Shown: positions 1,008 through 33,745 of the stretch, one piece after another
Layout: each line of letters opens with the position of its first letter
Numbering within the stretch: the first letter of the stretch is position 1
Source: a virus
Taxonomy: Duplodnaviria > Heunggongvirae > Uroviricota > Caudoviricetes
Direction: 5' to 3' (one strand)
Length of the DNA: 34,727 nt
Virus record (IMG/VR): IMGVR_UViG_2585427750_000024
Translations under genes and position numbers: made by a program
The notes under the pieces: generated by a model
The model's input: the letters and a program-made list of their open reading frames with translations, nothing else
Told to the model about the DNA's origin: nothing
Databases searched by the model: none

Positions 1008-1355
1008 TTACTTATCACATAAATCAAATGCAGCCTTAGTGACATCCCCCAGACTCTTTTTTAACCCTGGGGCGGCATCATTATCTAGCCAAAATGGATT
1101 ATTGTTATCTAACGGTAACGCACCAAATGTTTTACCTTTTATTCGAGCTAAACCTGTAAGCGCATATAACTTATTATCGTCAAAATTCATCACATAAGGA
1201 TTACCATCAAGACACTGTAATTGAACCTCATCAGTATTAAATGGCCATACCCCATTGAAACTCTCACGTTCAATAGTTTTAAAAGGCATTGCGACGGCGG
1301 AAAAAGAAAACATAGATAAAAAAGTAACTAATAGTTGAACCTTTTTTACTTTCAT
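1008..1355 (-). CDS. Small secreted/periplasmic protein of unknown function (cargo gene)
   Basis: 115 aa; N-terminal signal peptide (MKVKKVQLLVTFLSMFSFSAVA), two Cys; tightly packed between int and the upstream ORF; no P2 counterpart at this position. Confidence 0.5.
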   Translation of the reverse strand: MKVKKVQLLVTFLSMFSFSAVAMPFKTIERESFNGVWPFNTDEVQLQCLDGNPYVMNFDDNKLYALTGLARIKGKTFGALPLDNNNPFWLDNDAAPGLKKSLGDVTKAAFDLCDK

Positions 1356-1384
1356 ATCATTACCTCAATTTAGCTCAAGTAAGA

Positions 1385-2035
1385 TTACAAATTAAAAAAC
1401 ACCCTAGAAATGGCACCGCCTACCAAAACCCCTACGCAGATAAAGAATATTATTTCTTTTGGATAAAGTCGGATTAATTCTGAAGCACGAAGTCGAACTT
1501 CTGGTAAGGCCGAACTCTCTGTGTGACTTGATGCCGATTGTTGCTCTAACCACGACAATGCAGACTGTAACTGAGAACGAGTAAGATCGTTTAAACGTCC
1601 TGTACCGAAATTGATATGGCAATACCGCAGAAGTTTTTGTCGAAGTCCACAGTCTTCACTGTTACGTAGTAATAAACTTACAAGAGTCTTACAGGCATCA
1701 TGATCTTTACATCGCTCAAGCATTGCATGCAGAAAACTCTCCGCTGTTTTATATTGATTTACTGTCATATCATCAATACCAGCTACACCAATCTCCGCAT
1801 GTACTTTTTGCCAAATAATAAACGCTTCAGTATTGCTAGCTTCTGCAATAGCAGCAACCAAGCTATTTAGCTCCTTACGCTGAGCCTTAAGCAAAGGGCG
1901 ATCGTCATCATCATTATTCGAAGGGATTGCGATATTGACGGTATGAGAACCATCATATCGCTCTATCTGAATATTCTTTTCGTGAAAATCACGCCCAGCA
2001 ACGCGATTGTTTGAACCGTTTGAGTTGACGGCCAT
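1385..2035 (-). CDS. C-terminally membrane-anchored protein co-transcribed with the repressor; candidate superinfection-exclusion/abortive-infection factor
   Basis: 216 aa; strong SD (GGAGGTGAC) immediately before ATG, 15 nt after the repressor stop; single C-terminal TM helix (IIFFICVGVLVGGAISRVFF); N-terminus shares the motif SNNRVAGRDFHEK with the repressor C-terminus. Confidence 0.55.
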   Translation of the reverse strand: MAVNSNGSNNRVAGRDFHEKNIQIERYDGSHTVNIAIPSNNDDDDRPLLKAQRKELNSLVAAIAEASNTEAFIIWQKVHAEIGVAGIDDMTVNQYKTAESFLHAMLERCKDHDACKTLVSLLLRNSEDCGLRQKLLRYCHINFGTGRLNDLTRSQLQSALSWLEQQSASSHTESSALPEVRLRASELIRLYPKEIIFFICVGVLVGGAISRVFFNL

Positions 2036-4487: not shown

Positions 4488-4595
4488 ACCTCAAGCCAGC
4501 AATAACTACTCGTAGAACGTCAATTCCTGTAACCGACCGCTTCTGAGTTTTTTGGCAGGAAGCCTTCGCACATCTGTAGTAAAGAGAATTGCAGC

Positions 4596-4985
4596 ATGAT
4601 TGACGCTCATGACTTCACAAGATGGGTGCGCACACAGGACACCCGTCTGGCTCCCGTTCTTCAGGGATTATTTGATCTCTACATCCGTGGTCGTGACAAC
4701 AGAGCACGCACCACAAAACCGGAGAATGCAGACACCCTTTATTTCACAGTAGACGACTGCTACCGCGTGGACTTCACACCACACGGGCTGGCGTTGCACT
4801 GCCTGACACCACACGGCGAATCACTGCTGGCGTATTACGACTCCCCGGCCTCCATATTTGCGGCAATGCTGGCGCATCGCACTGCTGGCGGGTGTGCCTC
4901 GCTGATTGAATACTCCGCTGAATTTAACCGCCTTTCCGCCCTCTTCTCACAGGAGTGGCAGCGCGTGACGGGATACCAGCCATGA
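4596..4985 (+). CDS. Hypothetical protein translationally coupled to replication gene A
   Basis: 129 aa; stop TGA 4983-4985 overlaps the ATG 4982-4984 of A. Confidence 0.5.
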   Translation: MIDAHDFTRWVRTQDTRLAPVLQGLFDLYIRGRDNRARTTKPENADTLYFTVDDCYRVDFTPHGLALHCLTPHGESLLAYYDSPASIFAAMLAHRTAGGCASLIEYSAEFNRLSALFSQEWQRVTGYQP

Positions 4986-7822
4986 GTGCGTTTGCATGGA
5001 GCTGGAATGAACCACGGCCAGCCATTGATCCGGCCAGATTTACGGAGCGCAGGCAGGAAACTGAAACCGACCTGCAACGCGCCATCCGTTACTACCTTGA
5101 GGCAAACAAAAGGGCACAGGAAGAACAGGAAGCGAAGGAAGAAGCCTTTTTCGCACAATCCACCGTGGGTAAAAAACTCATGGCATCCCTTGAGGAAGCC
5201 GGACAGCGTGAAAAGCTGGCACAAAGCATCATCAGCAAGCGTCAGGCAACAGAACAAGACCCGGTGGCCCGTGCTTTTGCCACACTGAAGGTGCTTCCCG
5301 TTTATCTGCGTGAACCTCTGAGCCGCCACCTCTCTTTTCTGCGCAAGAAGCAGGAAGCCGATCGTCAGAAAGGCAAAAAGAGCTGGCAGGCTGAACGCTA
5401 CGCGCGCGGAACCCTGCGCAAAATATTCGAACGTCTGGACCGCACCGACAGCCGCTGGCTGACACCGGGCTATCGCTCCCTTGCCGGACGCGAACGCCTG
5501 GACGATTTGCTTTACCTGCCGCAGCTCAACAAACACCAGATACAGACGCTGGCCACCATGACGGCGGCGATGTTCAGTGGCACTTTTGAAAAACTCTGCG
5601 ATGGCTTTGGCGCGACCGATGGCGAGCTGACCATGGATGTAACGCTGAAGGCGTATCAGATGCTGGCCCGCATGGCGTTACACCTGCACGCTATGCCTCC
5701 ACATTATGACGCTCTGACAACAGACAAAGACCGGAGGAATGAACCGGACACGGAGCTGCTGCCGGGCGCAATCCTTCGCCTGACCTGTGCGGAATGGTGG
5801 AAACGCAAACTGTGGCTGTTACGTTGCGAGTGGAGAGAAGAACAACTCCGCGCCGCCTGTCTGGTTTCCAGAAAAACATCACCCTATCTGAGCCAGGACG
5901 CGTTAAGCGAGTTTCGCGCACAGCGCGAGAAAACACGCGATTTCCTGAAAAGTTTCATGCTGGAAAACGAAGACGGGTTCACGATTGATCTCGAGACAGT
6001 GTATTACGCGGGAGTAAGTAACCCGATTCACCGTAAGGCAGAAATGATGGCCACCATGAAGGGGCTGGAACTTCTGGCCGAAGCCCGTGGCGACAGAGCG
6101 GTGTTTCTGACTGTCACCTGCCCGTCAAAATACCACGCCACAACAGAGAACGGTCATCCGAATCCCAAATGGAACGGGGCCACCATGCGCGACTCCAGCG
6201 ATTACCTGGTTAACACGTTTTTTGCGGCGGTCCGCAAGAAACTGAACCGCGACGGCCTGCGCTGGTATGGCATCCGCACGGTGGAGCCTCACCATGACGG
6301 CACCGTGCACTGGCATATGATGGTCTTTGCTCATCCGGAAGAAATCGACACCATTGTGTCCCACACCCGCGATATTGCCATTCAGGAAGACCGCCACGAG
6401 CTGGGCAATGATATTACTCCGCGCTTTAAGGTGGAGTATGTCGACGGCTCAAAAGGCACGCCAACCAGCTACATCGCCACCTACATCGGAAAGAACCTGG
6501 ACAGCCGCGCCGTGGATGGCATCGACCCGAAAACGGGCAAGCCACGCGTTGACCACGAAACCGGAAAATCAATGGCCGAGAGCGTGGAACGCGCCATCGG
6601 CTGGGCACGCCTTCACCGGGTCCGCCAGTTCCAGTTCTTTGGCATCCCCTCCCGTCAGGTATGGCGTGAACTCCGCCGCCTTGCCAGCCAGATGGCACGC
6701 AACCCGGAAGGCCCACAACGGCTGAAGGATGATGCAATGGATGCGGTACTCGCTGCCGCTGATGCCGGGTGTTTTGCCACCTACATTGAGAAACAGGGCG
6801 GCGTACTTGTTCCACGCAAAGACTACCTGATTCGCACCGCCTACGACCTCGCAGATGAGCTGAACGATTACGGCGAACAGAGCGTACAGATTTACGGGAT
6901 CTGGTCACCACTCATCGGGGAATCCTCCCGTGTGTGCACGCACTCGGATAACTGGAAGCTGGTAAGACGTAAACCGGAAGCGGAAGACAGCACCCGCGAA
7001 AATGGTTTTGACCTTCAGGGCGGCCCTGCCGCCCCTTGGACTCGTGGCAATAACTGTCCCCGTGTACAGGAAACGGACAACAACGGGACAGAACAGCCGG
7101 AAGAAAGGCCAGCACCGTGGCCGCAGCTTCCTGACGGCGTTGACGTGAATGAATGGATGCGCTCACTGAAACGGCACGAACGCCGGGCGCTGATGCGTTC
7201 GCTGCGTGACAAACAGGCAAAAAACAGCAGTGATGAAATGCAGAACTGGACACAGAGCCGCAAACAGCCACGGCCTTTGCCTGATAACCACGAGTTACTC
7301 GCTAAAGAATGGCGGGAGTCTGCTGAATCTCTCGGCCTGCATATCGGTGAACAGCAGATGCAGCACCTGTTACGGGGCGGCAGTCTGTACGTTGACGGCA
7401 GCATCATTGCACCGCAGGGATTTGAAATTGTACGCAAACCAGATACCCGCCCGGACAGCCGAATCACGCAACTCTGGCAGCGCCTGAGCCGTAATCACGG
7501 CGTAAGCAGCACGGAGATCCGCCATAACCCGGTCGCCAGCTATCTGGAACAGCTGGGGGCATCAGACCCCGAAGCCGCCGCACACCTGGCATCCACACTT
7601 CAGCAGGACCAGAACACCATGAAAACCCCCGTTACCGTGCTTTCTGACATGCTGCGCGCCATCCGTGACGCAGTGCACGCACAGAGAATCAGTGAAACCA
7701 CTGAACGCGCCCACCGCAAAGCAGACCTGCTGCGGGGTAGCCTGACCAGTGGAAACAAAAAACAGACAGAAACGGGACTCACAAATCCCGTAAATGAGCA
7801 AAAAACGTGCCGCGATATATGA
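4955..7822 (+). CDS. A: Replication initiation protein A (rolling-circle HUH endonuclease), P2 gpA-like; probable true start 4982
   Basis: 955 aa; motifs TCPSKYH and EPHHDGTVHWHMMVF match recalled P2 A; ~200 aa longer than P2 A with a C-terminal extension. Confidence 0.9.
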   Translation: MAARDGIPAMSAFAWSWNEPRPAIDPARFTERRQETETDLQRAIRYYLEANKRAQEEQEAKEEAFFAQSTVGKKLMASLEEAGQREKLAQSIISKRQATEQDPVARAFATLKVLPVYLREPLSRHLSFLRKKQEADRQKGKKSWQAERYARGTLRKIFERLDRTDSRWLTPGYRSLAGRERLDDLLYLPQLNKHQIQTLATMTAAMFSGTFEKLCDGFGATDGELTMDVTLKAYQMLARMALHLHAMPPHYDALTTDKDRRNEPDTELLPGAILRLTCAEWWKRKLWLLRCEWREEQLRAACLVSRKTSPYLSQDALSEFRAQREKTRDFLKSFMLENEDGFTIDLETVYYAGVSNPIHRKAEMMATMKGLELLAEARGDRAVFLTVTCPSKYHATTENGHPNPKWNGATMRDSSDYLVNTFFAAVRKKLNRDGLRWYGIRTVEPHHDGTVHWHMMVFAHPEEIDTIVSHTRDIAIQEDRHELGNDITPRFKVEYVDGSKGTPTSYIATYIGKNLDSRAVDGIDPKTGKPRVDHETGKSMAESVERAIGWARLHRVRQFQFFGIPSRQVWRELRRLASQMARNPEGPQRLKDDAMDAVLAAADAGCFATYIEKQGGVLVPRKDYLIRTAYDLADELNDYGEQSVQIYGIWSPLIGESSRVCTHSDNWKLVRRKPEAEDSTRENGFDLQGGPAAPWTRGNNCPRVQETDNNGTEQPEERPAPWPQLPDGVDVNEWMRSLKRHERRALMRSLRDKQAKNSSDEMQNWTQSRKQPRPLPDNHELLAKEWRESAESLGLHIGEQQMQHLLRGGSLYVDGSIIAPQGFEIVRKPDTRPDSRITQLWQRLSRNHGVSSTEIRHNPVASYLEQLGASDPEAAAHLASTLQQDQNTMKTPVTVLSDMLRAIRDAVHAQRISETTERAHRKADLLRGSLTSGNKKQTETGLTNPVNEQKTCRDI

Positions 7823-7898
7823 AGCGCGCACAAAACAGGCAAAAGCGGGATTTAAAAATCCTGTAACCGATTAATTAATCAACACAAGGAAAAGCGAC

Positions 7899-8858
7899 AT
7901 GAAAATTTGTATCGACGACGGCTCCACCAACATCAAGCTGGCATGGACTGAGAACGGCGAACGCCGCAACGCCATCAGCCCGAACAGCTTCAAGTCGGAA
8001 TGGTCTGCGCCGTTCGGTGGCACGCAGCCCGCGAACTACATGCTTGATGGCGTGCGCTATGGTTTTGATCCGGTCAGCGATCGCTTTGTCCAGACGACCG
8101 ACACGCAATACCAGTACAGCGATGTGAATATAATTGCCATTCATCACGCGCTGGTCAAATCAGGCATCACACCACAGGAAGTGGATGTGGTTGTCACCCT
8201 GCCACTGAGCGAGTATTTCGATACAAACGCACAGCCGGACATGGCCAACATCAACCGCAAAAAAGCGAACGTCATGCGCCCGGTGGAGTACCAGAACGGC
8301 GAAGCATTCACTATCCGTAACGTACGGGTTATGCCTGAATCCATTCCGGCTGGCTTTAAGGCACTGGCTGACATGAGTCCGTTTGAATCCCTGCTGATTG
8401 TGGATTTGGGCGGAACCACTCTGGATGTGGCAAAGGTTCAGGGGCAACTGGCAGGTATCAGCCAGGTGTTTTGCGATCCACACGTGGGCGTTTCTCTGAT
8501 GGCCGATGCCGTACTGTCGGTGATGGCCACTAACGGTATGCGCACCAGTCACCACATCGCCAATACCATTATCGAACATCGCCATGATGAAGCCTGGCTG
8601 CGCCAGCACATCCACAATGACGCGCATTACGCCAGCCTGATGGCGGTTATTCGTGAAAAGGAAGAAACACTGAAACAACGCGTGATCCGCGCGCTGGCGG
8701 GTTTTTCGGGTTACGGGCGGGTGATGGTTGTCGGTGGAGGGGCGGAGATTGTGGCACCCGCTATCCGCGAAGCCTGCGGAGTTAATGCGACTTTCATCGC
8801 GGACGGGGTGCCACAGTTTGCTCTGGTTAATGGGCTGTACGCAATGGACAAGGAGTAA
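7899..8858 (+). CDS. parM: ParM/StbA-like actin-like segregation ATPase (type II partition)
   Basis: 319 aa; MKICIDDGSTNIKLAW, ISPNSFK.EW, VMPESIPAG, IVDLGGTTLD, VMVVGGGAE, ALVNGLY all align with recalled plasmid R1 ParM. Confidence 0.85.
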   Translation: MKICIDDGSTNIKLAWTENGERRNAISPNSFKSEWSAPFGGTQPANYMLDGVRYGFDPVSDRFVQTTDTQYQYSDVNIIAIHHALVKSGITPQEVDVVVTLPLSEYFDTNAQPDMANINRKKANVMRPVEYQNGEAFTIRNVRVMPESIPAGFKALADMSPFESLLIVDLGGTTLDVAKVQGQLAGISQVFCDPHVGVSLMADAVLSVMATNGMRTSHHIANTIIEHRHDEAWLRQHIHNDAHYASLMAVIREKEETLKQRVIRALAGFSGYGRVMVVGGGAEIVAPAIREACGVNATFIADGVPQFALVNGLYAMDKE

Positions 8859-8862
8859 ACCA

Positions 8863-9174
8863 ATGACGACTCCAACCAGACGGATAAGTTTCTATCTGAA
8901 GCCCACCGCCGTCAAGAACGAAGGAGAAGCATGCGCCTGGCTGGACAGCCTTACACCAGAAGCCCGCAAAAGCGGCCAACGCGTGGCTTTTCTGGCCGGG
9001 CTGGCACTTCTGAAAATGAATCCGGCAGAGGCTTATCGACTGGCTGCATGGGCTGGTGATGAAGCGTTATCAGTGACACAAACCAGGACAGAACGCCCCG
9101 CATCACAGCCAGTATCAACCGCACAGATAACCAGTCAGATGGCCGGAAATATCCGGGCGTTATTTCCTGAATAA
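8863..9174 (+). CDS. parR: ParR/StbB-like centromere-binding adaptor
   Basis: ATG at 8863, in frame with track ORF 8728..9174, 4 nt after the parM stop; RISFYLKP...LDSLTPEARKSGQRVAFLAGLAL and C-terminal IRALFPE resemble recalled R1 ParR. Confidence 0.7.
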   Translation: MTTPTRRISFYLKPTAVKNEGEACAWLDSLTPEARKSGQRVAFLAGLALLKMNPAEAYRLAAWAGDEALSVTQTRTERPASQPVSTAQITSQMAGNIRALFPE

Positions 9175-9182
9175 CACAACAT

Positions 9183-9200
9183 CAGGGCGAGTTCGCCCTG
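9183..9200. repeat. Palindromic element CAGGGCG-AGTT-CGCCCTG, copy 1, 3' of parR
   Basis: 7-bp perfect inverted repeat read directly; no T-tract; same arms recur at 9841-9866. Confidence 0.5.
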
Positions 9201-9237
9201 CTCTCCACCTCAGAACATAAACAAGGAGAACGACTTA

Positions 9238-9828
9238 ATGAGCGAAATCAACTATCAGGCATTACGTGAACGTTATTCACCTGTGCCAGTACCGAAATGC
9301 CCTATTTGCGGCGAGGAAATGTCAATTCAGCGAATATCTGGAGCACAGGTTGTTTATGCCTGCTCCGGTTATGGTGATGATGGAGATTTCAAAATTGGCC
9401 AAACTCTTGCCGACGAACATTATGAAAAATCACGCGTAACAGTGTTGGATGTCGGGGATCCTGAAGTATTGGCGCTACTTGATTGGCTGGAAACCAAAGA
9501 CAACCGAATCGCTGAACTGGAAAAAATCGCCACTGACTATGCACTTAAATTCCAGAAAGCACAGGACGCATTAAAGTATGCCGCTTTGCTGCATAGCAGG
9601 ACGGCGCAACAAACAAATAATTTTGCAGTATCGCTTCCGGACATAAGCGAATATTTCATTAATGACGTATTTCAGCCCTTGCGATACGAGCGGGATGTTG
9701 AAAGAGCCATCATAAAGGCTGGCGGAAAAGCATTGTGGCAGGAGAAACACGAGGACAGAACGCATCAGTCCTGCGATGTAAATCGTGGATGGTTTAGCCC
9801 ACTGACGACAGATAAAAATAACACCTGA
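9238..9828 (+). CDS. Hypothetical protein with N-terminal Zn-ribbon-like CxxC...C and central coiled-coil-like region
   Basis: 196 aa; CPICGEEM...YAC; RBS AAGGAG upstream; located in the hotspot between A and cos. Confidence 0.55.
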   Translation: MSEINYQALRERYSPVPVPKCPICGEEMSIQRISGAQVVYACSGYGDDGDFKIGQTLADEHYEKSRVTVLDVGDPEVLALLDWLETKDNRIAELEKIATDYALKFQKAQDALKYAALLHSRTAQQTNNFAVSLPDISEYFINDVFQPLRYERDVERAIIKAGGKALWQEKHEDRTHQSCDVNRGWFSPLTTDKNNT

Positions 9829-9840
9829 TCCCCCTCAAAC

Positions 9841-9866
9841 CAGGGCGATAATCGCGCATCGCCCTG
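9841..9866. repeat. Palindromic element CAGGGCGAT-N8-ATCGCCCTG, copy 2, 3' of the 196-aa ORF
   Basis: 9-bp inverted repeat with the same arm sequence as 9183-9200, followed by CTGC in both cases. Confidence 0.5.
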
Positions 9867-10266
9867 CTGCACAATAGTGCACAAGTTTGCACAATTTTTT
9901 TGAACGACTTTTTACCCTTCCGGCCCGCATGGCGGCTGGATCCGTCAAGGATCCGTGCGTGCACAAAAAAACGCGCTTTTTCTGCGCGCAGGTGACGGGG
10001 GAACAGCCCGCGTTTCAGGGGGTAAATAGCATCCCCTGAACGATGTCGCAGCGACACAACAGAATGGCTGTATTTCTCACGCTGAGCGTGAAAAAGACGT
10101 GAGGGCTTTTGATTTGATGGGTGGCAGATAAGGCCGTCAAAATCGCACTGAGGCGGCGAGAACATGCAGTCAACGCGGTGGGATTGCGTAAGAGTCTGAC
10201 CGCCGATGATGACAATAAGCAGAAAAGCGTCGTGAAATTATCTGATTGATACAGGAGCTGGAGAGT

Positions 10267-17943: not shown

Positions 17944-18085
17944 CCAACCCACATGGGGAAACCTCGGAATATGGGGCGACCGCCTTCTGGATGCACTGGA
18001 AACCTGTAACGCGGATAAACGGGCCATTGCTGAACTGGATAAGAGAATAGCCGAACTGACACACCAGACGGGAGTAACACAATGA
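17804..18085 (+). CDS. o-spanin lipoprotein (Rz1/LysC-like), embedded/overlapping the i-spanin
   Basis: Lipobox LVLLTGCAG, Pro-rich mature region; track start GTG 17774, ATG 17804 more likely. Confidence 0.55.
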   Translation: MNAPTLCLTLVLLTGCAGTQNAPRPAPSVRLIPQTLTMPVTPPPFPDQPTWGNLGIWGDRLLDALETCNADKRAIAELDKRIAELTHQTGVTQ

Positions 18086-19959
18086 CCAGTAAGAACTTTG
18101 CACTGATTACAGCCATGACACAGGCTGAACTGACTCAAAAGGTGAATGAACATCTTGCGAAAGGGTGGCATCTTCAGGGGGAGACGCGGGTTGCCTACGA
18201 ACCCGGCACCCCGTGGTATCTAATGCAGGCAATGGTGGCCGATGGCACTACAGACATCTCACCTGATTCCCCCCAGCACGGCAGCGTGCCGGAGTGGTAT
18301 TACGTGGTGGTACTTGCTGGTCAATCCAATGCCATGTCATATGGTGAGGGAATGCCGCTGCCGGATTCTTACGATGCGCCCCACCCACGCATTAAGCAAC
18401 TGGCCCGTCGCAACACAGTGACTCCCGGTGGTAAAGCATGCGCATTTAACGACATCATTCCGGCAGATCACTGCCTGCATGATGTTCAGGATATGAGCGC
18501 ACTGAATCACCCGAATGCAGACCTGAGCAAAGGGCAGTATGGCTGTGTCGGACAGGGCTTGCATATTGCCAAACGCCTGTTGCCTTACATTCCACAGAAT
18601 GCCGGGATTTTACTGGTTCCATGCTGTCGTGGTGGTTCGGCATTCACCCAGGGCGCGGAGGGGACATTCAGCGAGTCCACAGGAGCCAGTCAGGATTCGG
18701 CTCGCTGGGGGGTGGGTAAACCTTTATATCAGGACCTGATTTTGCGCACGAAGGCCGCATTGCAGAAAAACCCAAAAAACATGCTGCTGGCCGTATGCTG
18801 GATGCAGGGCGAATTTGACATGAGCGCCGCTACGTACTCACAGCAACCTCCGCTGTTTGCGGCCATGCTGAAACAGTTTCGTGCGGACATTACCGAGTTT
18901 AACACGCAGTGTCATGGAGGCAGAGCGGCAAGTGTGCCATGGATTTGTGGTGACACGACGTATTACTGGAAAAACACCTACGGCACGCAGTACGACACCA
19001 TTTACGGGGCGTACAAAAACAGGGAGAGCGACAACGTTTTCTTTGTGCCATTCCTGACCGATGGTAGTGGCAACAATACCTCCACCAACGCACCAACGGA
19101 AGATCCGGATGCTGCAAGTGAGGGATATTACGGTTCGGCATCCCGAACGAACAAAAACTGGGTATCATCAAATCGCCAGACGCATTTCAGTTCATGGGCG
19201 CGCAGGAGCATTATTCCGGATCGTATGGCAACCGCTATTCTGAACGTAGCCGGTCGCACCTTAGCCTTCATCAGTGGTAAGGCACCGGAAATCAAACCCT
19301 CGCCCGGCGGCAACACGCCATCGGGTCCGTCTGCAGATACGTCCGTTCGCACAATCTCCCTGCTGCCGGCAGCCGGAGAGGCTGCTGCGCAGGGCTGGAG
19401 CATTAAGGATGGCGGAATTCAGTTGTCAGATGGTGTATTTAAGATCACCAAGCAGAGCAATAAAACCTGGTCCCTGACGCATCCGGTGGATGACGCAATT
19501 ACCCTGCTGACACAGGGCGGCAGACTGACCTGTAAGTTCCGCCTGTCAGGCGCACTGACCAACAATCAGTTCGGGCTGGGGATTTATCTGTATACGGATG
19601 CTCCCGTTCCTGATGGTGTGGCGATGACGGGTACCGGTAATCCGTTCCTGATGTCGTACTTCACTCAGACCACTGACGGCAGAGTGAATCTGATGCATCA
19701 CAGGAAAGCCGGAAACACGAAGCTGGGGGAGTTCGGCGATTACGGTAACGACTGGCAGACGCTGGAGCTGGTGTTCACCGCCAGCAGTGCCACGGTTACT
19801 CCGAAACTGAATGGAGTGGCTGGCCCGGCATTCCAGGTCATAAAAGACAGTCTGACACTGGGGCTGAATGCACTGACGCTGACGGATATTACCAAAAATG
19901 CAACGTATGGCGTTGAGATAGAAAGTCTGGTGCTGGAAATAAATAGTCCTGCAGCGTAA
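18082..19959 (+). CDS. Prophage NanS-p-like sialate O-acetylesterase (DUF1737 N-domain + SASA/SGNH esterase domain)
   Basis: 625 aa; N-terminal MTSKNFALITAMTQAELTQKVNEHLAKGWHLQGE (DUF1737-like) then VVVLAGQSNAMSYGEG (GQSN motif); start overlaps o-spanin stop; no counterpart in P2. Confidence 0.65.
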   Translation: MTSKNFALITAMTQAELTQKVNEHLAKGWHLQGETRVAYEPGTPWYLMQAMVADGTTDISPDSPQHGSVPEWYYVVVLAGQSNAMSYGEGMPLPDSYDAPHPRIKQLARRNTVTPGGKACAFNDIIPADHCLHDVQDMSALNHPNADLSKGQYGCVGQGLHIAKRLLPYIPQNAGILLVPCCRGGSAFTQGAEGTFSESTGASQDSARWGVGKPLYQDLILRTKAALQKNPKNMLLAVCWMQGEFDMSAATYSQQPPLFAAMLKQFRADITEFNTQCHGGRAASVPWICGDTTYYWKNTYGTQYDTIYGAYKNRESDNVFFVPFLTDGSGNNTSTNAPTEDPDAASEGYYGSASRTNKNWVSSNRQTHFSSWARRSIIPDRMATAILNVAGRTLAFISGKAPEIKPSPGGNTPSGPSADTSVRTISLLPAAGEAAAQGWSIKDGGIQLSDGVFKITKQSNKTWSLTHPVDDAITLLTQGGRLTCKFRLSGALTNNQFGLGIYLYTDAPVPDGVAMTGTGNPFLMSYFTQTTDGRVNLMHHRKAGNTKLGEFGDYGNDWQTLELVFTASSATVTPKLNGVAGPAFQVIKDSLTLGLNALTLTDITKNATYGVEIESLVLEINSPAA

Positions 19960-23428: not shown

Positions 23429-25561
23429 ATGAGTACCACAACACGAAAATTTAAAACCGTTATCACCGATACAGGTGCCAAAAAATTAGCTCAGGCAGCC
23501 GCGCCAGATGGTAAGCCTGTCCGCCTGACTCATATGGCCGTGGGCGACGGTGGCGGCGCGTTGCCCACACCAGACAGTAAGCAGACCCGTCTGGTGCATG
23601 AGGTGTGGCGACACACTGTTAATCGCGTCATCCTGGACGCAACACATCAGAACCGCATTATTGCGGAGCTGGTTATTCCTCCAGAAACGGGCGGATTCTG
23701 GATCCGGGAAATTGGTGTGTTTGATGAGCACGGCGATTTAATCGCGGTGGGCAATACTGCCGAAAGTTACAAGCCAGCCGTTGCCGAAGGGTCCGGACGT
23801 GCACAAACATTTCGCACCATTCTGACCGTATCCAGCACTGCCACTGTGGCGCTTACCGTGGATAACACCATGGTGATGGCCACAGTGGATTACGTGGATA
23901 ACAAACTGAAAGAGCATGAACAGTCACGATGTCACCCGGATGCCTCGCTGACCGCAAAAGGCTTTGTTCAACTCAGTAGCGCCACTAACAGCGATTCTGA
24001 AACGCTGGCTGCAACGCCGAAAGCGGTTAAGGTCGCGTATGATCTTGCTAACGGAAAATATACAGCGCAGGATGCCACAACAGCGCGAAAAGGCCTTGTC
24101 CAGCTTAGTAGTGCAACCAACAGTACATCTGAAACGCTGGCGGCAACATCAAATGCAGTAAAAGCTGCCTATGACAATGCTGAAAAACGTCTGCAGAAAG
24201 CTAAGAATGGTGAGGATATCTCTGATAAAGACACCTTTACGAAAAATATCGGTGCCTGCCGTGCATATAGTGCAGAGCTGAATATTGGTGGAGATAGTGA
24301 AGCATGGACAACTGCGCAGTTGATTTTTTGGCTAGAGAGTCAGGGGGCATTTAACCATCCTTACTGGATGTGCAAAGGCTCATGGGCTTATGCAAATAAT
24401 AAGGTCATTACAGATACAGGTTGCGGAAGTATTTGTCTTGCAGGTGCTGTTGTGGAAGTTATTGGCACCCGCGGCGCAATGACCATACGCATTACCACAC
24501 CGAGTACATCCAGCGGTGAAGGCATCCCTAATGCTCAATTTACTTATATTAATCATGGTGATGCTTATGCTCCTGGCTGGCGAAGGGACTATAACTCCAG
24601 GAATAAGCCAACAGCATCAGAGATCGGGGCGTTACCGTCAGATGGGACAGCAGTATCGTCAGTTAATCTGGCTTCAAAAGGTCGGCTGACCGCCCTGACA
24701 GATAATATGCAGGGGGCCACAGGTCTGGAGTTATACGAGGCGTATAACAACGGATATCCAACAACGTATGGAAATATCATTCACCTGAAAGGGATGACAG
24801 CCGTTGGCGAAGGCGAATTACTCATCGGCTGGAGGGGTATAAGCGGTGCTCATGCTCCGGCATTTATTCGTTCACGACGGGATACGCCCGACGCAAACTG
24901 GTCGCCGTGGGCGCAGCTTTACACCTCGGCTCATCCTCCTGAAGAGTTTTATCCAGTCGGTGCACCGATTCCGTGGCCATCAGATACCGTTCCGTCTGGT
25001 TATGCCCTGATGCAGGGGCAGACTTTTGACAAATCTGCATACCCGAAACTTGCAGTCGCTTATCCGTCAGGCGTTATTCCTGATATGCGTGGCTGGACGA
25101 TTAAGGGCAAGCCCGGCAGTGGTCGTGCCGTATTGTCTCAGGAACAGGACGGCATTAAATCGCACACCCACAGCGCCAGCGCATCCAGTACGGATTTGGG
25201 GACGAAAACCACATCGTCGTTTGATTACGGTACTAAAACGACCAGTTCATTTGATTACGGCACAAAAACTACGAATAGCGCTGGAAATCATTCACACAAT
25301 ATACCTGTTGGTCACACTGGCGCGGGGAATGGTGTATCAGCCGGTTATAACGCTGCGTTAGGTACTGGTACCACGTCGAGCGCAGGCGAGCATGCTCACA
25401 ATGTATATATCGGTGCCCATAACCACACTATCGGCATTGGTGCTCATGCCCATTCTGTCATTATTGGTCCCCACGGACACACCATCACCGTTAACGCTAC
25501 GGGTAACGAAGAAAACACCGTAAAAAACATCGCATTTAACTATATTGTGAGGCTTGCATAA
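23429..25561 (+). CDS. H: Tail fibre protein, P2 gpH-like
   Basis: 710 aa; conserved N-terminus ([37 protein letters not shown]...[40 protein letters not shown]) matches recalled P2 H; divergent C-terminus with peptide repeats and His-x-His boxes. Confidence 0.85.
25199..25273 (+). repeat. Tandem 30-bp (10-aa [10 protein letters not shown]) repeat, ~2.5 copies, inside H
   Basis: Read directly; copies differ mainly at synonymous positions. Confidence 0.6.
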
Positions 25562-26139
25562 TGACATTCAGAATGAGTGAACACTCACGGACCATAAAAA
25601 TTTATAATCTACTGACCGGAACCAATGAGTTTATTGGTGAAGGTGATGCATACATTCCACCTCATACAGGTCTGCCTGCAAACAGTACCGATATTGCCCC
25701 GCCAGATATTCCGGCTGGCTTCGTGGCCGTTTTCAACAGTGATGAGGCATCGTGGCATCTCGTTGAAGACCATCGGGGTAAAACGGTTTATGACGTGGCA
25801 TCAGGGGACTCGTTATTTATTTCTGAACTCGGTCCATTACCGGAAAATGTTACCTGGTTGTCGCCGTATGGAGAGTATCAGAAGTGGAACGGCACATCCT
25901 GGGTGAAAGATGCAGAAGCAGAAAAACTGTTTCGGATAAGGGAGGCGGAAGAAACAAAAAACAGCCTGATGCAGGTAGCCAGCGAGCATATTGCGCCACT
26001 TCAGGATGCCGTAGATTTGGATATTGCAACGGAGGAAGAGGCATCGTTACTGGCTGCATGGAAGACATACCGGGTATTGTTGAATCGTGTTAATACAGCG
26101 GTAGCAGCGGATGTTGAGTGGCCAGTCGCCCCACAATAA
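25561..26139 (+). CDS. G: Tail fibre assembly chaperone, P2 gpG-like
   Basis: 192 aa; C-terminus ...[23 protein letters not shown] resembles the recalled P2 G end; start overlaps H stop (ATAATGA). Confidence 0.75.
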
Positions 26140-26145
26140 AGAGAA

Positions 26146-26175
26146 AAAGCCATCGATTGAAATATAGATGGCTTT
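26146..26175 (-). terminator. Hairpin AAAGCCATC-N12-GATGGCTTT between convergent G and acetyltransferase genes; intrinsic terminator on minus strand
   Basis: 9-bp perfect inverted repeat; on the minus strand the stem is followed by TTTTTCTC. Confidence 0.45.
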
Positions 26176-26182
26176 ATGTACT

Positions 26183-26788
26183 CTATTTATACAATACAAC
26201 ACCGCTCTTTTTAGTTATATATGTGCAGTTCGATGGTATATCTTTATTTATAAAAGACATTGCACCTATTTTTACATTATCCCCAATTTTACGTGATAAT
26301 CCAATGATGCAACAATTAGCTCCGATATCAACGTTACTACCAATTTTTACTCTTGAACCAGGCATGTCACCATCTATCTGTCCAATGGTAGTATTCTGTC
26401 GTAACACCAGATTTTCACCAGCATCAACAGCAAAATGAACAACAATTCCAGCATGATGGGGAATTGTTAACCCTTTTCCAATATTTGCGCCCAATCCAAT
26501 TTCACAACCAAATTTGTTAATTATTTTACTGTTTAACTTTTTGGCTGCTTTCTTATGTAATTTATTACCATTAATATACATTTCGTTAGCCAACCGCCAC
26601 CAGAAAAGGAAATTCCGGTTACGCTGTTTTTTCTCTCTTAAAAGCCTCCAGATATCCATACGTTTCCGCCGAATTACTTCATATTTCCAGAAGTTTTTTA
26701 AATTAGTAGAGTCCCCAAATAAAACAAAGTGAATTGCCATTAAGTAAGACAGCACGATAATCTCCTTAATTATTATTTCAGACCACAC
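26183..26788 (-). CDS. Hexapeptide-repeat acetyltransferase (serine-acetyltransferase/WcaB-like left-handed beta-helix), moron
   Basis: 201 aa (GTG start; ATG alternative at 26740); repeated [LIV]-G-x4 hexapeptides (GCEIGLGANIGKGLTIPHHAGIVV, IGSNVDIGANCCIIG, IGDNVKIGAMSFI); AT-rich island 26140-26911 at the P2 Z/fun position. Confidence 0.7.
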   Translation of the reverse strand: MWSEIIIKEIIVLSYLMAIHFVLFGDSTNLKNFWKYEVIRRKRMDIWRLLREKKQRNRNFLFWWRLANEMYINGNKLHKKAAKKLNSKIINKFGCEIGLGANIGKGLTIPHHAGIVVHFAVDAGENLVLRQNTTIGQIDGDMPGSRVKIGSNVDIGANCCIIGLSRKIGDNVKIGAMSFINKDIPSNCTYITKKSGVVLYK

Positions 26789-26911
26789 ATATTATAAGGT
26801 TAAGAGATTATAAAATCCTGTTGTTTGTTATTCAAAAACAATTTTCTGAGAAGGACATACAACAGCAAGTCGCCAGTCACCTTCATCAGGAAATTGGCGA
26901 CATACGTTAAA

Positions 26912-27406
26912 TCAGAGCAGCCCCTTAACTGAGCTGGTCGCGCTATTAAGGGATGATGTCACCTTATCTTTGAAGCCGGACAACATATCGCTGAACGATG
27001 AGGATTGCAGGCGCTCCCGCAAATCCTCATCACAGCGTTCAAGAGTCAGTGAAAATTCTATCTTTTTCGCCTTACCGTAGCGATCAAACTCGGAGCGGGT
27101 CGTATTCGTTTCGGTCAGGACATACATGCCGTAAATCTGCCCGACGCCATCAATCAGAGGCCAGGGCCGTCCTGTATACGCCTGCGTGGTCAGCAGAGAC
27201 AGCGACACTTCGCCACCTGTAATTTCAGGATAAAGCACACCAGAAAGAACGATGCGATCATCACCTGCACCGATATACTGCCAGCTTGCTGAACGGTTAA
27301 CGCGTTCATTTTTCACATGCCGCCAGCTTTTGTTTTGCTGTAACTGCTGATGCGGCAGCGTGCGCAGCTCAAAAACAAACATGCCATAGATCATCATCAT
27401 GGCCAT
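26912..27406 (-). CDS. U: Tail protein, P2 gpU-like
   Basis: 164 aa; WRHVKNERVNRSASWQYIGAGDDRIVLSGVLYPEITGG resembles recalled P2 U. Confidence 0.8.
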   Translation of the reverse strand: MAMMMIYGMFVFELRTLPHQQLQQNKSWRHVKNERVNRSASWQYIGAGDDRIVLSGVLYPEITGGEVSLSLLTTQAYTGRPWPLIDGVGQIYGMYVLTETNTTRSEFDRYGKAKKIEFSLTLERCDEDLRERLQSSSFSDMLSGFKDKVTSSLNSATSSVKGLL

Positions 27407-32644: not shown

Positions 32645-33745
32645 ATGACCGATACCACCATGCAATTGCTCAGTCAGAGCACAGACCCCGTGAAAATGCC
32701 GGATTTTGATATTCTCGCGGAGGGGGAAACACTGTCCGGCGTGGCAGAGCGCCTGATGAGCCTGTCACTGACCGACAACCGGGGATTTGAAGCGGACCTG
32801 CTCACCATCACGCTGGATGATGCGGATGGTCAGTTGCAGCTACCGCCACGGGGCGCGCGCCTGACGGTTCTCATTGGCTGGAAAGGAGAACCGCTGACAG
32901 AAAAAGGCACTTACATTGTTGATGAAATCGCTCACGAAGGACCGCCGGACAGGCTGACTGTTTCAGCCAGAAGCGCAGATTTTCGGGATGAATTTAACGT
33001 TAAACGTGAGGTGTCCTGGCATGATGTGACCGTTGAGCGCGTGGTATCCGCCATCGCTCATCGGTACGGTCTGAAACCACAAATCAGCGAAATGCTGATG
33101 GATATTGAAATCGACCACGCCGACCAGACCGAAGAAAGCGACATGTCCTTCCTTACGCGCATGGCGGAAATGCTGGGCGCAATCACTACGGTAAAAAGCA
33201 GTAATCTGTTATTCATCATGCCAGGCGGTGGCGTGAACGCACAGGGCCAGCCGTTGCCATCGTTCGCCATCACGCGCAGCAGTGGCGATCGCCATCAGTT
33301 CCGCATTGCTGACCGCGAAGCGTATACGGGGGTACGTGCTTACTGGCTTGATCTTAATTACGGGAAAAAGAAAAAAGTCAGCGTGAAACGCCGCAAACCG
33401 AAAAAGGAGAAAAGCAGCAGCCGTGAAGGTGACTATATGGAAGGTGCGGAAGGCAACGTGTTTGTGTTACGCAAGACTTATCAGAACGAGCAGGCAGCAA
33501 GACGTGCAGCGGCGGCAAAGTGGCAGCAGCTACAACGCGGAGCCGCATCATTCTCCATCACGCTGGCGCGTGGACGCGCAGAACTCTATCCCGAAATGCA
33601 TGGCACGGTGACAGGCTTCAAAAGTGACATCGATAATCAGGACTGGATTATTGCAAAAGCCGAGCACACCATTGATAACAGCGGCTTTACCACACAGCTT
33701 GAGCTTGAAGCAAAAATCCCGGAATGGATAGCAGAAACAGAATGA
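32513..33745 (+). CDS. D: Tail protein D (P2 gpD-like); probable true start ATG 32645
   Basis: Track ORF 410 aa; from 32645 (MTDTTMQLL...) 366 aa; SLSLTDNRGFEADLLTITLDDADG...SARSADF resembles recalled P2 D. Confidence 0.85.
   Translation: MIRQQSSPTTRVISPLRRSPATATTKSSNPLCTHMRPCRTGREQMTDTTMQLLSQSTDPVKMPDFDILAEGETLSGVAERLMSLSLTDNRGFEADLLTITLDDADGQLQLPPRGARLTVLIGWKGEPLTEKGTYIVDEIAHEGPPDRLTVSARSADFRDEFNVKREVSWHDVTVERVVSAIAHRYGLKPQISEMLMDIEIDHADQTEESDMSFLTRMAEMLGAITTVKSSNLLFIMPGGGVNAQGQPLPSFAITRSSGDRHQFRIADREAYTGVRAYWLDLNYGKKKKVSVKRRKPKKEKSSSREGDYMEGAEGNVFVLRKTYQNEQAARRAAAAKWQQLQRGAASFSITLARGRAELYPEMHGTVTGFKSDIDNQDWIIAKAEHTIDNSGFTTQLELEAKIPEWIAETE

Follow-up and report, generated by a model that had tools for sequence, protein, structure and literature searches.

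A low-G+C prophage gene of Escherichia coli named as a serine O-acetyltransferase most likely encodes a WcaB-like sugar acetyltransferase and moves with a tail fibre tip cassette

We describe here an acetyltransferase gene of a P2-like Escherichia coli prophage, the product of which, with a probability that we put at about 60%, is expressed in the lysogen and O-acetylates a precursor of an envelope glycan, so that an altered cell surface would be expected. Judging from its predicted structure, the protein is best explained as a soluble acetyl-CoA-dependent enzyme of the WcaB/serine-acetyltransferase-like branch. The database label, which makes it a cysteine-pathway enzyme, appears to be wrong in substance, and a WcaB-like sugar acetyltransferase is most likely the better description.

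The window, by which we mean the whole stretch of DNA that was analysed (34,727 nucleotides), represents a P2-like E. coli prophage, extending from an integrase gene at position 1 past the late-control D gene, and a tested part of 2.1 kb was identical to prophages of E. coli O103 strain RM8385 and of many O26, O111 and O157 strains. The features that surround the acetyltransferase gene are listed in Table 1. The G/tfa gene is convergent with the acetyltransferase gene and, beyond gpU, the minus strand carries the genes for the tape measure protein, E/E', FII and FI in this order. As the whole FI-FII-E-T-U block is inverted, with D divergent from FI, the island that harbours the acetyltransferase gene is bounded by gpU and co-oriented with the F block. 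The D gene was located at about 32645-33745 (+), divergent from FI, which differs from P2, and the inverted arrangement of the FI-U block was common to at least 494 E. coli genomes and P0007-type prophages. Site-specific inversion was considered as the origin of this arrangement and was rejected, as no inverted repeats flanking the FI-U block were found, the best pairs being chance-level matches of 14-28 nt inside genes.

Several other features of the prophage were observed. A gene for a 625-aa DUF6645 protein was present at 18082-19959 (+), between the lysis genes (LysC) and the tail completion gene R, which is an unusual cargo site for a P2-like phage. The interval between the replication gene A and the portal gene Q contained genes for ParM, a partition/stability protein and an Ea22-like protein (7899-9828, +); this interval is a hotspot of P2, at which about a quarter of P2-like phages have a partition system (PMC9122126). 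A second patch of low G+C content (about 37-39%) at 1008-2035 (-), situated between a repressor-like HTH gene and the integrase gene, encoded a DUF2511 protein and a membrane protein, which may be further cargo for lysogenic conversion or exclusion. Within tfa, there was a full-length match to the Rfam family IS009 (RF02111) at 25904-26102 (+), scoring 192 bits against a gathering score of 117, and a candidate E. coli sRNA family thus overlaps the 3' part of tfa.

Table 1. Positions of the acetyltransferase gene, its putative expression signals and its neighbours in the window
Feature	Position	Strand	Basis
Tail fibre protein H, 710 aa	23429..25561	+	Pfam Phage_tail_fib, Phage_fiber_2, Collar
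Mobile cassette: fibre C-terminal tip, tfa and acetyltransferase CDS up to the start codon	24948..26747	.	Shared with P1-like phage-plasmids
Tail fibre assembly protein, P2 G/lambda Tfa type	25561..26139	+	Pfam Caudo_TAP (E 1.2e-39), annotation
Putative intrinsic terminator hairpin of the acetyltransferase gene	26146..26175	-	RNA fold; T-run at 26133-26145
Acetyltransferase CDS, 190 aa, GTG start, TAG stop	26183..26755	-	ORF; RefSeq WP_000954196.1 at the same coordinates
Shine-Dalgarno sequence AAGGAG, 6 nt upstream of GTG	26762..26767	-	Read from the sequence
Putative sigma-70-like promoter, TTGAAT-17 nt-TATAAT, 10/12 matches	26807..26835	-	Promoter scan, conservation
Hairpin just past the gpU stop codon	26869..26901	-	Fold -22.3 kcal/mol, z -3.5
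gpU, immediate neighbour of the acetyltransferase island	26912..27406	-	Pfam GpU, RefSeq annotation
FI-FII-E/E'-T-U tail block, inverted relative to P2	26912..32487	-	ORFs, Pfam GpU, RefSeq annotation, P2 gene order

The G+C content of the island (26140-26911) was 34.1% and that of the coding sequence 34.6%, compared with 52.5% for the whole window, and the island had the lowest G+C content among all 772-nt windows (mean 52.6%, SD 5.4). The composition unlike that of the flanking genes (34.1% vs 52.6% G+C) and the patchy presence, P2 having fun(Z) at this place and about 530 of 5426 E. coli genomes carrying the gene, are those of a moron in the sense of Juhala and Hendrix. The single real gene of the island lies within an open frame on the minus strand (26183-26788), in which the start codon is likely the GTG at 26755, in agreement with the 190-aa RefSeq protein, the N-termini of homologues and the upstream AAGGAG. 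The gene is real and constrained: there were 336 homologues of its product at E ≤ 1e-5, and the dN/dS was 0.19 in comparison with the copy in P1-like phages and 0.14 in comparison with an allele of 70% identity, which is comparable to the values of 0.15-0.16 for the neighbouring tfa. An Rfam scan of the island returned just sub-threshold chance matches (E 0.3-0.5).

With regard to its expression, the promoter scan detected a total of 5 sites against a shuffle expectation of 3.7 ± 1.6, indicating no enrichment, and the promoter call therefore rests on conservation. When the region upstream of the gene (26756-26865) was compared with positions 4900-5000 of the locus in the diverged P0007-type prophage, the 112 columns containing the -35, -10 and Shine-Dalgarno sequences were 94% identical, with AAGGAG being invariant, whereas the acetyltransferase coding sequence of that prophage was just 70% identical at the DNA level and the gpU-proximal 51 columns were 35% identical. 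Within the coding sequence, the ends of the two alleles were 88-100% identical and the centre (nt 300-480) 45-60%, the most divergent part being aa 100-160, around the predicted acceptor loop. The pattern indicates that mosaic alleles have probably been recombined into a conserved expression slot.

Downstream of the gene, the minus strand can fold into a hairpin with a stem of 9 bp (26175-26167/26154-26146) and a loop of 12 nt, followed by TTTTTCTCTTTATT, with a dG of -16.6 kcal/mol and a z of -3.9, and none of 200 shuffles folded as well. It makes a convincing candidate for the terminator of the acetyltransferase gene, and it was missed by a simple terminator scan because of the 12-nt loop. 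The same hairpin also folds on the plus strand, after G (-14.3 kcal/mol, z -4.1). The hairpin just past gpU is likely another terminator, which would shield the acetyltransferase gene from read-through of the late F operon; at the same post-gpU place, the P0007-type prophage has a different GC-rich hairpin. The preliminary description of this DNA, which had been made from the sequence by itself, had claimed an AT-rich island at the P2 Z/fun site with a gene on the strand opposite to H-G and a terminator hairpin of its own. The composition agreed, strand and hairpin were exactly as described, and the site is the positional equivalent of that in P2, i.e., after G on the opposite strand. It had also placed the island at a junction of the G and F blocks, which was right for the G side; the other side is gpU, not FI, owing to the inversion of the F block.

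The protein was modelled by AlphaFold2 as a monomer with a pLDDT of 96.1, and the model consisted of a helical N-terminal region of 82 aa followed by a left-handed beta-helix, which places the protein in the hexapeptide/left-handed beta-helix superfamily, the enzymes of which form trimers that have the sites for acetyl-CoA and the acceptor between neighbouring subunits. The Pfam Hexapep match (E 2.6e-5) was under the gathering score. The best NCBIfam models were EpsC with 75.5 bits (cut-off 150), CysE TIGR01172 with 61.8 bits (cut-off 210.65) and WcaB with about 54 bits (cut-off about 195), and the CysE model NF008349 gave 36.9 bits against a cut-off of 397; all the curated cut-offs being missed, the protein belongs to none of EpsC, CysE and WcaB at the curated level. 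It matched PHROG 2154, labelled 'unknown function', with an E of 1.4e-87 (protein residues 13-190, profile positions 3-181 of 185), and its RefSeq name is serine O-acetyltransferase. Relatives at E ≤ 1e-30 formed 69 clusters among 1.84 billion representatives, inside a superfamily of thousands. The putative catalytic pair was almost invariant, with His100 in 66 and the acidic Asp/Glu85 in all of 67 family members.

To evaluate the name serine O-acetyltransferase, we compared the protein with CysE (PDB 1T3D, 6WYE and 4N69), of which the catalytic His158 and Asp143 align with His100 and Glu85. In CysE, Asp157, Arg192 and His193 bind serine or cysteine (1T3D/1SSQ). The corresponding positions in the prophage protein are Pro99, Ser134 and Arg135, and these columns were variable in 67 relatives, with D, R and H being absent from the six commonest residues of the respective columns. 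The N-terminal domain of CysE has roughly 140 aa, compared with 82 helical aa in the prophage protein, in which no Pfam match to SATase_N was found. Furthermore, CysE ends in an Ile tail that binds CysK, whereas the prophage protein ends in ...VVLYK and the C-termini of its family vary. It is thus most likely that the acceptor pocket differs and that the protein is not a serine acetyltransferase.

The comparison with WcaB gave a closer match. Alignment by hhalign with E. coli WcaB resulted in an E of 1.4e-23 with 36% identity over 104 columns, and that with CysE in an E of 1.4e-17 with 27% identity; WcaF was a much weaker match. WcaB and the prophage protein share the G-x-E-I motif with the acidic residue and the catalytic I-H-H-G motif, and both are without the D-R-H-P loop of CysE. 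However, the scores for the WcaB models TIGR04016 and NF007564 (53.9 and 54.8 bits, respectively, vs about 195) are far under the cut-off, indicating that the protein is not an orthologue of WcaB. In addition, its first 80 residues do not align with the N-terminus of WcaB, and WcaB is encoded in the wca cluster, whereas the acetyltransferase gene resides in a prophage. WcaB itself is small and soluble and works in the cytoplasm, where its substrate is a lipid-linked sugar, and the wca gene names derived from EcoCyc are in line with WcaB-like acetylation of a lipid-linked polysaccharide unit. The preliminary description had assigned the protein to the hexapeptide-repeat acetyltransferases close to serine acetyltransferase and WcaB, an assignment with which the Pfam and NCBIfam matches agree, and had regarded a housekeeping CysE with conserved serine-binding residues as the finding that would speak against it; these residues proved not to be conserved, and the profile match was better to WcaB than to CysE. 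The nearest solved structures, by contrast, were all true serine acetyltransferases of the CysE type.

The island was found in 530 of 5426 complete E. coli genomes (about 10%), at 534 chromosomal places, with the same context of G, acetyltransferase gene, U and T in 494 genomes, and at 66 plasmid places, the plasmid copies being in P1-like phage-plasmids. The same allele was present in O26, O103, O111 and O157 strains. The segment that is shared with the P1-like phage-plasmids comprises more than the acetyltransferase gene (Table 1), with an identity of 94.2% over 1800 bp to JL22 and of 94.8% over 1798 bp to vB_EcoM-Ro157c2YLVW. Thus, the acetyltransferase gene travels between P2-like and P1-like phages together with the fibre tip and tfa, which is a new finding. 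The cassette of JL22 is located between inverted repeats of 602 nt, with cin just outside (JL22 4492-9955), and therefore lies inside the invertible C segment. In one orientation of that segment, the acetyltransferase gene is antisense to Stf-Tfa and, in the other, it would follow S'-U' on the same strand.

In unrelated myoviruses and prophages, homologues of 35-70% identity were also found next to the fibre-chaperone gene, on its far side and mostly in convergent orientation, for example in Hafnia phage yong2, Citrobacter phiNP, E. coli 613R2, a Salmonella tail remnant, a Gilliamella prophage and a Buttiauxella P2-like prophage. The last of these has the canonical order, that is, G, the acetyltransferase gene on the opposite strand and FI, and its homologue, being antisense to the late operons on either side, must have a transcript of its own. 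The view of the gene as cargo of the P2 site needs correction in this respect, as the gene appears to be tied to the fibre-tip/tfa cassette as much as to that site. Obligatory coupling of the acetyltransferase to the fibre type was rejected: the tfa type was matched in 4503 E. coli genomes, using a 2.1-kb query of which tfa was one part, compared with about 530 genomes with the acetyltransferase gene, and was mostly without it, and some P2-like phages (ev040-type) have a homologue next to int and not by the fibre genes. Other homologues, of 50-57% identity, were encoded on EPEC EAF plasmids, where they follow the bfp pilus operon, and at one end of an HP1-like prophage, the latter beside hok/gef and copA and indexed in 594 blocks of an assembly collection.

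As for chromosomal homologues, 12 of 80 species loci were linked to LPS genes, the homologues in these having an identity of 41-51%. Seven of the 12 adjoin a gene for a Kdo/WaaP-family kinase, mostly together with genes for HldE and NeuB and an ABC transporter gene at the place expected for MsbA, and the other five have a GT9 heptosyltransferase gene within two genes. The kinase-adjoining homologues (41-46% identity), found in six Halopseudomonas/Pseudomonas loci and in Dechloromonas, come directly after the kinase gene; in the Halopseudomonas/Pseudomonas loci, HldE and the ABC transporter are upstream, and NeuB is downstream in five of the six, mostly with a GNAT gene and a PseG-like gene. 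The kinase, HldE and NeuB neighbours place these homologues in loci for the LPS core and nonulosonic acids. About seven of the 80 loci were prophage tail contexts, and the rest were orphan insertions among unrelated genes, e.g., beside a POT transporter/GGDEF in Rahnella, TonB receptors, EF-G and BON/SIS. A uniform glycan context for the homologues was therefore rejected.

Several known systems resemble the acetyltransferase gene in one respect or another. VpsG of Vibrio cholerae, which has been termed WcaB-like, was found to O-acetylate VPS by NMR of the mutant polysaccharide (PMC13463779). It supports the chemistry proposed for the WcaB-like branch, and the prophage protein is likened to it through that branch rather than by direct comparison; the VpsG gene lies in a polysaccharide cluster with a known polymer, whereas the acetyltransferase gene is prophage cargo. 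NeuO of prophage CUS-3 (PDB 3JQY), likewise an O-acetyltransferase of the hexapeptide-repeat type from a prophage, modifies a surface polysaccharide, which makes it a functional analogue, but it is only a distant superfamily relative. Membership in the NeuO type, for which a close relation to NeuO/NeuD and, at the 5' end, a heptanucleotide tract subject to phase variation would be expected, was not borne out, and NeuO-like phase variation was rejected, as no tandem repeats were found.

Two further systems resemble the gene in position. P2 fun(Z) is a non-essential gene placed between G and FI, in the orientation opposite to that of the late genes; it thus occupies the same slot and has the same relation to G, but Fun(Z) is an unrelated protein of 528 aa that blocks T5. 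The far neighbour of fun(Z) is FI, whereas that of the acetyltransferase gene is gpU, which results from the inversion of the FI-U block. NeaT of a CFT073 prophage is encoded by a single low-GC gene (30%), which follows the G homologue (moron position 2) in the opposite orientation, and is, like the protein described here, an acyl/acetyl-transferase for which an effect on the cell surface is predicted; among the cargo of the post-G site, it alone has a tested host phenotype. NeaT is an integral-membrane protein of the Acyl_transf_3 family (PF01757), whereas the acetyltransferase is a soluble beta-helix protein, so that the folds are unrelated and the compartments are probably different.

Based on these results, the following sequence of events may be possible. 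The acetyltransferase gene would have a sigma-70 promoter of its own that is active in the lysogen, and the hairpins on both sides would insulate it from the late tail operons. With His100 as the general base and Glu85 as its acidic partner, the enzyme would O-acetylate a sugar of an envelope glycan precursor at the cytoplasmic face of the inner membrane, as with WcaB and VpsG, the precursor possibly being a lipid-linked repeat unit or an LPS core that is still under synthesis. For the lysogen, the outcome could be masking of a receptor against other phages or an antigenic change. The presence of the same allele in several O serogroups makes a serotype-independent acceptor more likely than the O-unit; candidate acceptors are the LPS core, ECA and colanic acid, and the LPS-core neighbourhoods of the distant homologues point in the same direction. 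Against a glycan acceptor, there are no glycan genes beside the acetyltransferase gene in the phage, most of the chromosomal homologues are orphans, and the nearest solved structures are serine acetyltransferases. No functional study of the gene was found in the literature, and the papers on P2 hotspots do not mention it; the role of the acetyltransferase is given as unknown in the paper on JL22, and the gene is simply listed as 'fitness' cargo in that on C. rodentium.

Among the alternatives, the one that fares best, though we consider it unlikely, is that the target of the enzyme lies inside the cell and is not a glycan but, e.g., a small molecule, a xenobiotic similar to an antibiotic or part of an incoming phage, and that the gene serves defence or fitness. 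Moron sites of P2-like phages often hold anti-phage genes, of which fun(Z), situated at the same site, is an example, and hotspot surveys agree with this; many homologues are orphans without glycan neighbours, and some were found on the EPEC EAF plasmid or, at a prophage end, next to Hok/Gef. However, none of the defence models in PADLOC-DB 2.0 was matched at E ≤ 0.1, xenobiotic and aminoglycoside acetyltransferases scored far below the serine acetyltransferase/WcaB-like matches, and the link to LPS-core loci recurs in other genera.

The glycan reading could also be extended to the fibre itself. In this model of binding and then masking, the acetyltransferase would modify the very envelope glycan, e.g., the LPS core, that is recognised by the linked fibre tip/Tfa, so that the 1.8-kb cassette would represent a portable unit of host range and self-exclusion exchanged between P2-like and P1-like phages, in which Cin inversion would switch the gene from being antisense to being co-transcribed with the alternative fibre, and back. 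We regard such coupling as a rather improbable, speculative refinement.

A role in the lytic cycle, which we hold to be distinctly improbable, would require late read-through, from the inverted F operon or, in P1-like phages, from the S'-U' operon, and the enzyme would then either take part in fibre maturation or acetylate the receptor glycan on the dying cell so that the progeny do not stick to debris. The position is in keeping with such a role, as the gene follows gpU in the same direction, which makes some late read-through possible despite the hairpin, and the JL22 gene likewise follows S'-U' in the same direction, within an invertible segment; the physical link to the fibre tip and tfa in many phages also fits. 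On the other hand, the post-gpU hairpin is strong, and a different one is kept at that place in the diverged relative; the Buttiauxella homologue is antisense to both late operons; and the sigma-70-like promoter is conserved. Protein substrates are, moreover, unusual for the left-handed beta-helix fold. Finally, a genuine small serine O-acetyltransferase, i.e., a feedback-insensitive CysE paralogue that boosts cysteine supply or induces the CysB regulon, as the RefSeq name would have it, is very unlikely in view of the low CysE profile scores, the replacement of the D157/R192/H193 equivalents by P, S and R, the short N-terminus, the lack of a conserved C-terminal Ile tail and the better profile match to WcaB.

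The gene itself had already been catalogued in RefSeq and PHROG, and prophage-borne glycan acetyltransferases are a known kind, so that the acetyltransferase is an ordinary kind of phage cargo that would not surprise a phage biologist. What is new is that the annotation is most likely wrong in substance, that the gene moves with a cassette and that mosaic alleles appear to occupy a conserved expression slot. The gain is, thus, a corrected annotation, a defined promoter-to-terminator unit and the recognition of its movement together with the fibre tip and tfa. The gene is carried by about a tenth of the complete E. coli genomes, among them those of the main Shiga-toxin-producing serogroups O157, O26, O103 and O111, and hence represents a common gene under a misleading metabolic name. 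If LPS or another common envelope glycan is acetylated by its product, this would be a widespread and unrecognised source of surface variation, which would affect phage susceptibility, with relevance to phage therapy and typing, and possibly recognition by antibodies.
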